Position numbers and translations under genes: made by a program
Origin: Escherichia phage BYEP02
Reading direction: 5' to 3' (one strand)
Sequence record: OR757454.1
Length of the DNA stretch: 64,000 nucleotides
In this document: positions 3,366 through 9,760 of the stretch, piece after piece
Numbering within the stretch: the first letter of the stretch is position 1
Layout of the letters: each line of letters starts with the position of its first letter
The notes under the pieces: generated by a model
The model's input: only the letters and a program-made list of their open reading frames with translations
Told to the model about the DNA's origin: nothing
The model's database searches: none

Positions 3366-3839
3366 ATGAAATCATATGCTCAATTTTTAAATGAAGCGGT
3401 GTTAAATGAAGCATCTAGCACTGAAATTCAAGCTGTTGCAAAAGCTGCCATTGCCGCGGGTAAATATTCCTATAAAGATGCTTCCGATGAATCACGATTC
3501 CAATTTGCTCGTGATATGAAAGCCGAAGGATTTACAGGGAATGCAGTTAGTATGGCTTGGAAAAGTTTAGTTGCTACTGGAGCTGCTTTTGCAAAGGCTT
3601 CAGGTAAACCTGCTCCTAAGGCTGACCCTAAAGCAGCACAAGAAAAAAATATTGCTAAAGGAATTATCTCTAGGTATGAAGCAATTCTTAAAGAACTTTT
3701 GATAATTAAGACCGAAGGCCAGAAACTTGCGCGTGCTTATAGTTTCAAAGATAATCCACATGCTCATGACCTAGAGTATGTTGAAGACCTCCAAAAAATC
3801 ATCAAAGACCGCATTTGGTCTGCTAAACAAATCAAATAA
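3366..3839 (+). CDS. internal head protein (IP-like) with N-terminal capsid targeting sequence
   Basis: N-terminus MKSYAQFLNEAVLNEASSTE resembles T4 IP targeting sequences; flanked by repeated terminators. Confidence 0.65.
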   Translation: MKSYAQFLNEAVLNEASSTEIQAVAKAAIAAGKYSYKDASDESRFQFARDMKAEGFTGNAVSMAWKSLVATGAAFAKASGKPAPKADPKAAQEKNIAKGIISRYEAILKELLIIKTEGQKLARAYSFKDNPHAHDLEYVEDLQKIIKDRIWSAKQIK

Positions 3840-3846
3840 CATTCTT

Positions 3847-3875
3847 AGCCCCGACCAAAAGGTTGGGGCTTTTTG
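3847..3875 (+). terminator. intrinsic terminator, third copy of the agcccc...ggggct hairpin
   Basis: agccccgacc-aaaa-ggttggggct followed by tttt. Confidence 0.7.
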
Positions 3876-4007
3876 GTATCTAGGCCTTTCCGGGCCTCTC
3901 TAGGCATCATTTAGTTTATACCCTTTATAATATATTATCCTACCTTTTAATTGCCCCTCCTGACCCTAGAATTCCCTAAAACTTTTTAAAAATTTTTTCA
4001 CAAAACT

Positions 4008-4037
4008 GTTTACATCCCTGTTCTTCCATGGTACTAT
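4008..4037 (+). promoter_or_regulatory. T4 early-type promoter (GTTTAC, 18 nt, TACTAT)
   Basis: Upstream A/T tract, -35 gtttac, -10 tactat; same architecture recurs across the window. Confidence 0.6.
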
Positions 4038-4080
4038 ACAACTATCAACTACTGATACAGAAAATAACTTGGAGAATGAA

Positions 4081-4421
4081 ATGGATAATTACGGCGAACT
4101 GTTCAACTTCTTTATGAAATGCGTTTCAGAAGATTTCGGTCGTACAGTGAATGATATTAAAGTCATCGGTCCTGACCATCCAACTTCTTTATGAAATGTG
4201 TTTCAGAAGATTTTGGTCGTACAGTGAATGATATTAAAGTTATCGGTCCTGATCATCCGATGTTTGAAACTTACGCAGTAATGGGTAATGAAGATGGTCA
4301 GTGGTATACTGTAAAGGTTGTGATTAACATGTTCACTGCTGAAGGTTATGTTAAACTGTCTTCTAAAGTTTACCATGATAACGATGAAATCGCAGAAGAA
4401 TATTTCAATAATATGAAATAA
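4081..4421 (+). CDS. hypothetical small protein, frameshifted by a 77-bp duplication
   Basis: ATG 4081; copy 1 gives premature stop; intact sub-ORF 4191-4421. Confidence 0.5.
4104..4257. repeat. 77-bp tandem duplication (4104-4180 / 4181-4257), 4 C/T mismatches
   Basis: Read directly; offset 77. Confidence 0.9.
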
Positions 4422-4451
4422 GTTTACACAGGCTCATGATTGAGATATTAT
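4422..4451 (+). promoter_or_regulatory. T4 early-type promoter (GTTTAC, 18 nt, TATTAT)
   Basis: Motif spacing as at other early promoters. Confidence 0.55.
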
Positions 4452-4477
4452 GAGCCTATAACTTTGAGGAGAACATT

Positions 4478-4813
4478 ATGAAACGTAACTTTAGTAAAGC
4501 TTTTTGTAATAGAAATTATTATCCTGAAGAGCTTTTTGAATCTAAGGACTTTAAAGAGTTTAACGAACGTTCTCAAAACATGCCTGTACAATGGGTGTTA
4601 GATTATGCCAAACGTATCTTTGAAGGTGTACGTTGGTTCAGTCCTGATGATGAAGCCCCATATTTTCAAAGGGCATGGTCTATAGTCAATCAAGCTTATA
4701 TTGATGCTTTAGAAAATATTAATATTATGGATGATGATGATGCTTTGTTAATCATCGATGAGTCTATTAATAGTAGTATCGATAAATTTATTGATGAATT
4801 GGACGAAGAATAA
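4478..4813 (+). CDS. hypothetical acidic protein (111 aa)
   Basis: ORF with RBS; acidic C-terminus. Confidence 0.5.
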   Translation: MKRNFSKAFCNRNYYPEELFESKDFKEFNERSQNMPVQWVLDYAKRIFEGVRWFSPDDEAPYFQRAWSIVNQAYIDALENINIMDDDDALLIIDESINSSIDKFIDELDEE

Positions 4814-4843
4814 GTTTACAAACTCTTGGGAGTAGAGTATAAT
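4814..4843 (+). promoter_or_regulatory. T4 early-type promoter (GTTTAC, 18 nt, TATAAT)
   Basis: Consensus -35/-10. Confidence 0.55.
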
Positions 4844-4888
4844 ACTCCCACGGATTATAAAAACCCTTAATTAACTAAAGGAAATGCT

Positions 4889-5482
4889 ATGAACATGCTG
4901 AAGAAAATTGTTGAGTTTATTCGCACTAAACTTGGTTCTGCTATGGCTAAAAATTTATCTGTTGAAGAACAGTATACTGCTGCGGCAGCAAAACTACTTG
5001 ATAAGATTAAAGATCTAAAAACTGCTTCTGTTAAATCTATTAATGAAGAAAAACGTATTCGTGAACTTATTGTCGAAAAGAATCGACAGGCCGAATCAAA
5101 AGAGCGTGAAATTCGCAAGCTTCTTTCTGAAGGTCAAGATGTAACAATGCATGCTAAACTCGGCTTGCTATATCGTCGAACAGCTGAACAGTTGACTACT
5201 AAAGCTGATGGTTATGCTGAAATGCGAATTGAAATCGCCAAGAAAGTAGTTGAATTGGATGATGCTCGCCAAGAACTTGCAGTTAAATTGGAATATATCC
5301 GTGAAACTCGTGCAGCAAATGCCCTTGGAATTAGTACTGCTGATGATGTAGTTGAAATTGCAGCGCTAACTAAAGTTGATATTGAAGATACTCTCGCCCG
5401 AGTTGAAACCTTTAATGGTAATATTTCTGGGGTTGAAACTACCTCTGCCGATGTTCAGGAATATATTAATTCTCTGAAATAA
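4889..5482 (+). CDS. coiled-coil protein (197 aa), loosely PspA/IM30-like
   Basis: Heptad-rich, charged helical sequence; assignment by composition only. Confidence 0.5.
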
Positions 5483-5487
5483 TGATA

Positions 5488-7921: not shown

Positions 7922-7924
7922 TTT

Positions 7925-7932
7925 TATAAATA
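7925..7932 (+). promoter_or_regulatory. T4 late promoter TATAAATA
   Basis: Exact TATAAATA upstream of e. Confidence 0.6.
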
Positions 7933-7937
7933 CCTTC

Positions 7938-7945
7938 TATAAATA
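7938..7945 (+). promoter_or_regulatory. T4 late promoter TATAAATA (second copy)
   Basis: Exact TATAAATA ~14 nt upstream of ATG 7959. Confidence 0.65.
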
Positions 7946-7958
7946 CTTAGGAGGTATT

Positions 7959-8447
7959 ATGAATATATTTGAAATGTTACGTATAGATGAAGGTCTTAGA
8001 CTTAAAATCTATAAAGACACAGAAGGTTATTACACTATTGGCATTGGTCATTTGCTTACTAAAAGTCCATCACTAAGCGTTGCTAAATCTGAATTAGATA
8101 AAGCTATTGGGCGTAATTGCAATGGTGTAATTACAAAAGACGAGGCTGAAAAACTCTTTAATCAGGATGTTGATGCTGCTGTTCGCGGAATTCTGAGAAA
8201 TGCTAAATTAAAACCAGTTTATGATTCTCTTGATGCTGTTCGCCGCTGCGCATTGATTAATATGGTTTTCCAAATGGGAGAAACCGGCGTAGCAGGATTT
8301 ACTAATTCTTTACGTATGCTTCAACAAAAACGCTGGGATGAAGCAGCAGTAAATCTAGCCCAATCTAAATGGTATCGTCAGACACCTAATCGCGCGAAAC
8401 GCGTAATCTCAACATTTAAAACAGGAACTTGGAAAGCGTATATATGA
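7959..8447 (+). CDS. e: T4-type lysozyme (endolysin)
   Basis: Translation [33 protein letters not shown]... matches T4 lysozyme over its length. Confidence 0.95.
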
Positions 8448-8802
8448 AAACATATAGTGAATTTTTATCAGAATCTATTCTTAACGAAGCTACTGACACA
8501 TTTGCAACTAAGCTAGGTGCAGCTTTGGTTGAAGCGAATTTTTATCAGAATCTATTCTTAACGAAGCTACTGACACATTTGCAACTAAGCTAGGTGCAGC
8601 TTTGGTTGAAGCTGAAAGTCTATTAGCACGTATTTCTGAACTTGCTAGTAAGATAGATACTCGCAAATTTGAACGTACCAGCGATATCGTTAAGCTTGAA
8701 GCCTTGTTGCGTATGTGCGATAAACCAGAAGAAATCGCTAAGAACGGCTCGCTAATGAAACAACGTCTTGAAAAATATATTTCAGGCGCTTCAGAAAAAT
8801 AG
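8444..8802 (+). CDS. small protein with capsid-targeting-like N-terminus, frameshifted by a 77-bp duplication
   Basis: ATGA overlap with e stop; N-terminus [16 protein letters not shown]; 94 codons after removing 77 nt. Confidence 0.55.
8459..8612. repeat. 77-bp tandem duplication (8459-8535 / 8536-8612), identical copies
   Basis: Read directly. Confidence 0.9.
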
Positions 8803-8803
8803 T

Positions 8804-8833
8804 GTTTACTTCCTCCAAGGACTTTGATACTAT
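8804..8833 (+). promoter_or_regulatory. T4 early-type promoter (GTTTAC, 18 nt, TACTAT)
   Basis: Consensus motifs upstream of denV. Confidence 0.55.
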
Positions 8834-8860
8834 ACATTCATCAACTACTTGGAGGAAATT

Positions 8861-9277
8861 ATGACTCGTATCAATTTAACACTTGTTTCTGAACTGACCG
8901 ACCAACATCTTATGGCTGAGTATCGTGAATTGCCGCGTGTTTTTGGTATAGTTCGTAAACATGTGGCAAATGGTAAGCGGGTTAAAGATTTTAAAATATC
9001 TTCCGAGTTTATTTTAGGCTCTGGTCATGTTAAGTTCTTTTACGATAAGTTAGAATTTTTGCGAAAGCGTCAATCAGACATTATAACGGAATGCTTAAAA
9101 CGTGGGTTTAGTATAAAAGATACTGAAGTTCCTGACATCAGCGATATTCCAGCAGAATGGAAAAATGATTATAATCCATGCAAATCAGCTATTAAATTGA
9201 GTCAACAACGACTCGATGAAAAAATTTTAATGAAGCCACACTGGTACAAGTATTACGGCAAAAATATTTACATTTAA
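8861..9277 (+). CDS. denV: endonuclease V (pyrimidine-dimer DNA glycosylase)
   Basis: Translation [29 protein letters not shown]... matches T4 endonuclease V. Confidence 0.95.
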
Positions 9278-9286
9278 AGGAAACAT

Positions 9287-9760
9287 ATGAAAACATATCA
9301 AGAATTTATCACTGAAGCAGCTATTAATTCTCAAATTATTGCTGAATCTTTTACTGATCTTTTGAAATTTAAAAAAGGTCAAAAAATTACTGCTGTATTG
9401 GATGATGGTACAGAAGTTGAGATGGATGTACAGGGATATAATTATGCAGTAGATGGAAAACTGTATAATAAATCCCATGCTAAATTTGATTCATTTGACG
9501 ACTTTGTTAATACAGTTGAAGATGAAAAAACTCGTAGATCAATTTCAACTGGTGATGCTAAGGTTCTTATGGCACACGGTCATGAACGTATTCGCGCTAA
9601 ACAGAATAAAATGGGTGAAGATAATTTCGCATTAGTTGGTTATCAATCTGGTAAACAAACTTATGGCTATCAGCGTACTGCTACCATGTATAATAAAAAT
9701 GGTAAAATCGCTTTCGTGAATAGTAAAGGTTCTATTCAGTACGTCAAATCATTCAAATAA
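9287..9760 (+). CDS. internal head protein (IP-like) with capsid targeting sequence
   Basis: N-terminus MKTYQEFITEAAINSQIIAE is the T4 IP-type targeting sequence. Confidence 0.65.
   Translation: MKTYQEFITEAAINSQIIAESFTDLLKFKKGQKITAVLDDGTEVEMDVQGYNYAVDGKLYNKSHAKFDSFDDFVNTVEDEKTRRSISTGDAKVLMAHGHERIRAKQNKMGEDNFALVGYQSGKQTYGYQRTATMYNKNGKIAFVNSKGSIQYVKSFK

Follow-up and report, generated by a model that had tools for sequence, protein, structure and literature searches.

Capsid-targeting N-termini at four dispersed loci of Escherichia phage BYEP02 point to candidate internal proteins

Introduction

Internal proteins that are injected together with the phage DNA are the earliest counter-defence factors of a phage. 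Can their genes be recognized from a short shared N-terminus, and does every gene with such a start encode a protein that travels in the head? The question is raised by a stretch of 64,000 nucleotides (nt) from Escherichia phage BYEP02 (sequence record OR757454.1), which was analysed as a whole and is called the window below. An earlier note had pointed out four open reading frames (ORFs) in this window, at 3366-3839, 8444-8802, 9287-9760 and 56143-56307, whose products begin like the capsid-targeting sequence of T4, referred to here as the tag. It took the products for packaged and injected proteins and for candidates with an anti-defence function. We name the ORFs by their first positions; ORF 9287 encodes the internal protein Ip4 and ORF 56143 is gene 61.1.

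Tag-bearing internal proteins, their variability and their anti-defence role are already established for T-even phages. The T4 capsid-targeting sequence goes back, according to later reviews, to work that Mullaney and Black reportedly published in 1996, and the variable internal proteins of other T-even phages are said to have been treated by Repoila et al. in 1994. That the repertoire varies has long been known, T2 having ip4, ip5 and ip7. To our knowledge, a target has been established for IPI alone among these proteins, and IPIII is known to affect host range. IPI inhibits GmrSD (PMC3012670, PMC9391042) and IPIII is needed to infect the strain ECOR17 (PMC9391042). In the literature, internal proteins appear as a varied group of defence proteins whose sole common element is the targeting sequence (PMC3012670). 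Packaging also takes in tagged proteins that are expressed from a plasmid, the timing of synthesis not being strict (PMC9026906). The present analysis brings out an unannotated and widespread tag-bearing family, represented by ORF 3366, together with its cassette structure, and an in-register link between 61.1 and the capsid protein gp23.

Four open reading frames begin with a capsid-targeting sequence

We scanned the whole 64-kilobase (kb) window in six frames with the regular expression MK[TS]Y..F[IL].E and with two looser versions of it. The scan returned exactly four matches, all on the plus strand and all at the start of an ORF: 3366, 8444, 9287 and 56143. The six-frame amino-acid frequencies predict 0.0004 matches per window, and the motif is therefore not a product of chance.

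The tags also agree with what has been learned of their function. Experimental mapping of T4 IPIII has assigned residues 4 and 7 to targeting and residues 8 and 10 to processing (PMC9026906). Tyr4, Phe7, Ile or Leu at position 8 and Glu10 are kept in all four ORFs of the window, and with them the (I/L)-x-E motif of the prohead protease gp21 at residues 8-10, which reads LNE in ORF 3366, LSE in ORF 8444, ITE in Ip4 and IKE in 61.1. A second (I/L)-x-E site follows at residue 15 or 20 in three of the four. The residue directly after the first cut (P1', residue 11), given as Ala or Ser in the earlier note, is indeed one of these two in three ORFs and is Asp in 61.1. For comparison, T4 has MKTYQEFIAE/A in both ipII and ipIII, MKTFKEFTSTTTPVSTITE/A in ipI and MKTFKEFIKE/D in its own 61.1 (slashes mark the expected cuts here and in Table 1). 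Among orthologues, the tag is conserved where the body of the protein diverges, which holds for the 3366, Ip4 and 61.1 families.

Beyond the tag, an all-against-all BLASTP comparison of the mature parts, T4 IPI, IPII and IPIII included, found no relationship, and none of the four resembles T4 IPI, the type of the GmrSD inhibitor, outside the tag. The mature parts of 8444 and Ip4 are homologous to annotated internal-protein families (phrog_3499 and phrog_3155, respectively). ORF 3366 (phrog_2280) and 61.1 (phrog_1823) belong to PHROG families of unknown function.

From these sequence features we conclude that the tag on each of the four ORFs is the T4 capsid-targeting sequence, and we put the probability that the T-even internal-protein explanation holds overall at about three in four. 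According to this explanation, the 10-residue N-terminal propeptide would bind the scaffolding core of the prohead and the protein would be enclosed as the shell forms. The gp21 protease would then cut after the Glu of (I/L)-x-E, and the mature protein would stay in the head with the DNA and enter the cell with it. The genes themselves would be exchanged as cassettes through short shared blocks, namely the tag-coding 5' end and a terminator hairpin repeat.

How firmly packaging, processing and injection can be claimed differs from protein to protein. For the products of 8444 and 9287 all three are very probable, and for that of 3366 they are probable; for 61.1 we regard them as rather doubtful. 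The reading of the earlier note agrees with what is known of T-even phages, and for Ip4 and the 8444 protein it agrees with their annotation, but it finds no such backing in the families of 3366 and 61.1. By analogy with IPI and IPIII, some of the four may act against host defences.

Several points weigh against this explanation. A literature search found no virion proteomics for these proteins, and data on virions or on processing came to light for none of the four. Searches by PDB sequence, Foldseek and BLASTP gave no link in sequence or fold to a known anti-defence protein, the PDB sequence searches being uninformative except for the match of 61.1 to gp23. Genes 20-24 lie outside the window, and the presence of a prohead core and of the gp21 protease would follow by analogy from the closest relative, slur14, a Tequatrovirus. 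Unlike IPII and IPIII, the mature products of 8444 and 61.1 are not basic (isoelectric points of 6.3 and 5.0). The rest concerns 61.1 in particular: its P1' residue is Asp, no late-promoter box was found within 1.5 kb of it, and in the T4 time course the 61.1 protein went undetected in the proteome and the 61.1 RNA was classed as early (supplement of PMC9697503).

Table 1. Features of the window discussed in the text (aa, amino acids; slashes in tags mark expected cleavage; for the duplications in replication genes the start position is given)
Feature	Position	Strand	Remarks
ORF 3366, candidate internal protein, 157 aa	3366..3839	+	Tag MKSYAQFLNE/AVLNE/A; PHROG 2280 at 2.9e-59, unknown function
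ORF 8444, gene of a 93-aa internal head protein, interrupted	8444..8802	+	Ten-residue tag, then /SILNE/A; PHROG 3499 "internal head protein" at 1.2e-46
ORF 9287, Ip4 (IpIV), 157-aa internal virion protein	9287..9760	+	Tag MKTYQEFITE/A, second site I-A-E/S at residue 20; PHROG 3155 "internal virion protein" at 1.1e-101; Pfam DUF7412 at 1.3e-95
ORF 56143, gene 61.1, 54 aa	56143..56307	+	Tag MKTYKEFIKE/DMVAGDSGG...; PHROG 1823; T4 61.1 at identical position
36-nt direct repeat, left copy	3289..3324	+	rnaC terminator hairpin; bounds the 3366 cassette
T4 late-promoter box TATAAATA	3322..3329	+	Upstream of ORF 3366, 44 nt from its start codon
36-nt direct repeat, right copy	3844..3879	+	Terminator-like hairpin after the ORF; bounds the 3366 cassette
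Pair of late-promoter boxes, upstream of the lysozyme gene (e)	7925..7945	+	Equivalents at -34 and -21 of T4 gene e
Two perfect copies of a 77-nt unit	8459..8612		Tandem duplication, frameshifts ORF 8444
59-nt block, ribosome-binding region and tag codons	9260..9318	+	Common to T4 ipII and ipIII
Duplication in gp45 (clamp)	42545		Open frame of 60 nt, 699 nt after removal of one copy
Duplication in gp44 (clamp loader)	43693		Open frame of 705 nt, 975 nt after removal
Duplication in DNA polymerase	45928		Open frame of 2250 nt, 2703 nt after removal
Duplication in helicase 41	53778		Open frame of 1188 nt, 1434 nt after removal
Duplication in primase	56275		Open frame of 132 nt, 1044 nt after removal

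A duplication artefact interrupts the gene at 8444

The coordinates in the earlier note are exact for ORFs 3366, 9287 and 56143, but 8444-8802 is not an intact ORF. With 359 nt, the interval cannot be divided into whole codons; from 8444 the reading frame is open for 49 aa and meets a stop at 8593, and the remainder of the gene is found in another frame at 8602-8802. The frameshift is caused by the two perfect copies of a 77-nt unit (Table 1). Removing one copy yields an ORF of 282 nt whose 93-aa product is identical to slur14 gp017, an "internal head protein". This restored protein matches 496 records, is 47% identical to T2-type ip5 proteins and has no hit in Pfam.

Since the frame does read as broken in the window as given, the frameshift might be real, in which case the gene would be a pseudogene from which the phage makes only a truncated product of 49 aa, or none. 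The duplication is not confined to this gene, however. Over the whole window, Tandem Repeats Finder reported 33 two-copy tandem duplications spaced 0.2-4 kb apart (for example 629-782, 8459-8612, 40130-40284, 45928-46083 and 56275-56428), the period being exactly 77 nt in 31 of them and 81 nt in the other two. Between copies, 54-77 of 77 nt are identical, and at least 73 in most cases. At all 10 sites that can be compared, slur14 has a single copy. Dropping one copy lengthens the open frame over the junction at most sites, including those in essential genes: DNA polymerase, helicase, clamp, clamp loader and primase are destroyed in the same way as 8444, and each is restored by the removal (Table 1), as is the frame of nudE.

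Because the duplications break essential genes, a viable phage cannot carry them, and we attribute them to an artefact of assembly or concatenation. They look like 77-nt overlaps between concatenated contigs that were left unmerged. A biological 77-nt duplication in 8444 was rejected on these grounds, namely the 33 occurrences, their absence from slur14 and the essential genes that they break, and we consider a true pseudogene extremely improbable. The same artefact explains why the interval 8444-8802 had been mistaken for an ORF. More generally, 33 artefactual duplications that frameshift genes mean that ORF-level findings from this window need checking.

A related repeat lies at 3150-3311, where the 3' part of rnaC and its terminator occur twice with a period of 81 nt and copies that are 90-96% identical; slur14, T4 and T2 have a single copy. 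This duplication probably belongs to the same class of artefact, though its period and the divergence of its copies differ from the 77-nt cases.

Internal-protein genes vary around the lysozyme gene and share a 5' block

Judged by similarity and gene order, the window is a segment of a T-even phage genome that extends from the tRNA genes to primase (Tequatrovirus, slur03/RB32-like). In Megablast searches of phage genomes, the whole length of positions 3000-10200 matched the Escherichia phages slur14 and slur03 at 98.6% identity; further Tequatrovirus records, numbering in the hundreds, matched at 90-95%. The genes follow the T4 order read counter-clockwise: ten tRNAs, rnaC, e.8 to e.2, nudE and the lysozyme gene e are followed by an internal-protein gene, denV, a second internal-protein gene and the vs genes, and the segment ends with 61.2, 61.1 and the primase gene 61.

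The interval between e and vs.8 differs among relatives. It reads e, ipIII, ipII, denV, vs.8 in T4; e, the 93-aa internal protein, denV, Ip4, vs.8 in the window; and e, ip4, vs.8 in T2, which has ip5 and ip7 at the ipI locus. Compared with window positions 8849-9277, T2 has ip4 directly after e, with no denV, ipII or ipIII between them. The interval from e to vs.8 is thus a hot spot, in which denV and the genes of internal proteins are gained and lost jointly. Outside the window, slur14 has a T4-type ipI next to 57B; counted with the four ORFs of the window, this gives five tag-type genes for this type of phage against four in T4.

The window shares with T4 IPI, IPII and IPIII the decapeptide pattern, the (I/L)-x-E motif at residues 8-10, the small size of the proteins and the neighbourhood of e and denV, and differs in that the mature parts are unrelated. 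The earlier note had held that the number and placement of these genes differ from T4. This is borne out by the 3366 cassette, which has no T4 counterpart, by the e-denV interval, where one unrelated 93-aa protein replaces ipIII and ipII, and by Ip4, which lies after denV; 61.1, on the other hand, occupies the same position in T4. T2 offers a parallel: its ip4, ip5 and ip7 likewise bear the tag and stand as alternatives at a small number of variable loci, Ip4 corresponding to ip4 and the 8444 protein resembling ip5-type proteins. The 3366 family departs from these T2-type proteins: it lies at another locus and is not named as an internal protein in the records inspected.

The Ip4 protein of the window has matches in 470 phage records and shares 99.4% identity with T2 ip4. 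M1, K2, F7, E10 and E20 are invariant in its family. Its structural model (predicted template modelling score, pTM, of 0.71) gave weak matches only, to small beta-barrels. The two late-promoter boxes upstream of e (Table 1) have equivalents at -34 and -21 of gene e in T4, and could drive late transcription through 8444, denV and 9287 by read-through.

The start of the Ip4 gene lies within a 59-nt block made up of 27 nt upstream, which are identical, and the first 32 nt of the gene. This block is 95% identical to the 5' end of T4 ipII and has 94% identity with the 5' end of ipIII, and the gene bodies are unrelated, which fits cassette exchange through a tag-coding block. Taken further, the same likeness to ipII could mean that the N-termini are shared mainly for the sake of recombination: some 50-60 nt, comprising the ribosome-binding site and the first 10 codons, would be kept as a linker through which gene bodies are swapped between phages; the tag would then say little about the fate of each protein. 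The 36-nt repeats on both sides of the 3366 cassette and the different repertoires of T4, T2 and this phage are in line with such a role. The tags of the window, however, have only 22-26 of their first 30 nt in common. The variation falls on the free positions while residues 4, 7, 8 and 10 are kept, which argues for selection on the peptide, and the function of the tag has been shown experimentally in T4 (PMC9026906). Linkers and targeting are in any case compatible ideas. We consider it distinctly unlikely that the tags are mainly linkers, and retain targeting to the head as the preferred reading.

ORF 3366 lies in a repeat-bounded cassette

We read ORF 3366 as an unannotated new member of the tag-bearing internal proteins, no inspected record naming it so. 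Its product matches 511 phage records, and the 40 matches listed are "hypothetical" or unannotated; in phage Kha5h the ORF is present and is not called as a gene. No Pfam family was found for the protein. Orthologues keep the tag and have differing C-terminal halves; they begin with MKTYNEFLNE or MKSYAEFLTE, with MLEYSEFLKE in Yersinia phage fHe-Yen9-01 and with MKFKEFLAE in Klebsiella phages.

Seven TATAAATA boxes occur on the plus strand of the window, one of which stands upstream of ORF 3366 (Table 1). The homologue of Klebsiella phage KP1 has a late box at the same spacing of -44. The ORF is located between rnaC and e.8, and T4 and T2 are without exactly the positions 3325-3844 and have the 36-nt sequence in a single copy. 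The cassette thus defined measures 520 nt and consists of a late promoter, the ORF and a terminator, with the 36-nt repeats on both sides. In being a unit of promoter, ORF and hairpin that is bounded by repeats and is present or absent between close relatives, it resembles the promoter/stem-loop cassettes of T4-type phages (PMC2839356). It differs from them in that its promoter is the late box and not an early sigma-70-type promoter, and in that its repeat is the rnaC terminator.

We accept ORF 3366 as a member of the class on the strength of a tag and a late box that are conserved across genera, of tag-bearing neighbours in the Yersinia phage, and of its organization as a discrete unit. An AlphaFold model of the protein is all-helical, with a four-helix N-domain and a long helical hairpin (predicted local distance difference test, pLDDT, of 74; pTM 0.44), and Foldseek found no match for it in the PDB with E < 1.

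The Yersinia phage deserves separate mention. In the stretch of fHe-Yen9-01 that was examined, three ORFs with tag-type N-termini are clustered at 500-658, 1222-1791 and 1801-2337, all of them "hypothetical"; the 3366 homologue adjoins an ORF that starts with MKTYIEFINE (52 aa) and one that starts with MLQYNEFLKE (189 aa). This cluster suggests that unannotated internal-protein loci are present in other genera of the Tevenvirinae. A catalogue of tag-bearing genes would narrow the candidates for injected effectors to a few that can be tested, and should include unannotated families such as that of 3366.

Gene 61.1 aligns in register with the cleavage region of gp23

Among the four proteins, that of 61.1 is the most interesting and the least certain as cargo. 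Its alignment identifies 61.1 as a paralogue of a stretch of gp23 (about residues 56-94) that stands on its own. Residues 1-38 align without gaps to residues 56-93 of gp23 from Acinetobacter phage 133 (Acj133), with 45% identity and E = 6e-11, and a PDB sequence search matched 61.1 to T4 gp23 residues 59-94 in capsid structures with E = 0.0085. In this alignment Glu10 of 61.1 is paired with the cleavage site of gp23, Glu65; gp21 cuts behind Glu65 and thereby takes off the gp23 propeptide of 65 residues (PMC9546572). Residues 56-66 of gp23 (AQAFGSFLTE/A) and residues 1-11 of gp24 (MAKINELLRE/S) fit the tag pattern in register, having hydrophobic residues at 4, 7 and 8 and the cleavage Glu at 10. 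The gp24 propeptide, 10 residues long, has already been grouped with the tags (PMC5694885). The common register of 61.1, the tag and the region around the gp23 cut suggests a way in which the tag may be recognized and a possible origin for it.

The family is large and well conserved in this region. Searches gave 1396 matching records, T4 among them, and clustering at 50% identity left 50 representatives. The short forms measure 50-70 aa; long forms have 120-250 aa, with the shared module at the C-terminus. Every member inspected has the module (D/E)MVAGDxGG...NIAxGxTxG, usually followed by GP, and a Lys-rich tail, and most have [ILMV]-x-E directly upstream of the module. E10 is invariant, MK.[FY].[ED][FV] is common, and many short forms start with MK.F.(E/D)F. 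Some of the short forms read ...FLKEAE/VSGD, very close to FLTEAE/IGGD of gp23. In all eight records whose context was inspected, the 61.1-family gene lies upstream of the primase gene.

T4-like phages of Cronobacter, Acinetobacter and Klebsiella have long forms of 154-163 aa upstream of or near primase. In these, about 108 aa at the N-terminus form a conserved domain, after which comes L-x-E/(D/E)MVAGD..., and some records label them "major capsid protein". Tequatrovirus 61.1 has the 10-residue tag in place of this N-domain. Some records give this label to 61.1 as well. We rejected it for 61.1, which comprises about 40 residues and a Lys-rich tail and has no capsid fold; Pfam gave no hit for 61.1, and a full capsid-protein domain was not found.

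The likeness to gp23 opens a different view of 61.1, in which it is not injected cargo. Its tag-like N-terminus would be there because all 54 aa are a copy of the gp23 segment across the maturation cleavage site and into the start of mature gp23*, and this copy would act in head assembly, for example as a competitor for the site on the scaffolding core to which the N-terminal region of gp23 binds, or as a substrate or modulator of gp21. The in-register alignment is what such a role would predict, and in short and long forms alike no part of the family is better conserved than the module (D/E)MVAGDxGG...NIAxGxTxG...GP. On the inside of the unexpanded head, gp23 residues 66-105 are disordered and are believed to make contact with the scaffolding core; head length is altered by mutations at gp23 residues 66, 94 and 97 (PMC9546572). 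The position of 61.1 in a replication operon and its early RNA point in the same direction. The T4 proteome, in which the 61.1 protein went undetected, tells against an assembly role as well, and a search of the literature on gp61.1 found nothing on function, phenotype or interactions. Packaging would moreover be compatible with it, given that a cleaved, core-binding 61.1 peptide could simply end up in the head. A role in assembly instead of injection is in our view possible, at clearly less than even odds.

The timing of expression does not settle the matter. In the T4 data set, the RNAs of ipI, ipII and ipIII are classed as early and their proteins as late (supplement of PMC9697503), and no TATAAATA was found within 120 nt of any of the three genes. 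The class of promoter alone therefore cannot decide whether 61.1 is packaged. For the same reasons, the late promoter was dropped from the definition of the class.

A more far-reaching proposal can be built on these alignments. The 61.1 family would represent a free-standing, core-binding segment of gp23 with its cleavage site; the tag would be the same element, derived from or mimicking the end of the capsid propeptide; and 61.1 would serve in head assembly as a peptide that is cleaved. Independently of this, the proteins of the 3366 family would be effectors that are injected and whose gene travels on a mobile cassette. We offer this combination tentatively and regard it as rather unlikely to hold in full. 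For the set of four ORFs, we continue to favour the internal-protein explanation.

Directly upstream of 61.1, the ORFs at 55157-55783 and 55785-56141 end in the same 14 residues (SIDDQIFNAFMNR[DG]). One of them is a 61.2 of the T4 type (208 aa); the other is an extra ORF of 118 aa, which is absent from T4 and is found in 337 T2/RB32-like records. It looks like another module that was inserted through a repeated 3' end.

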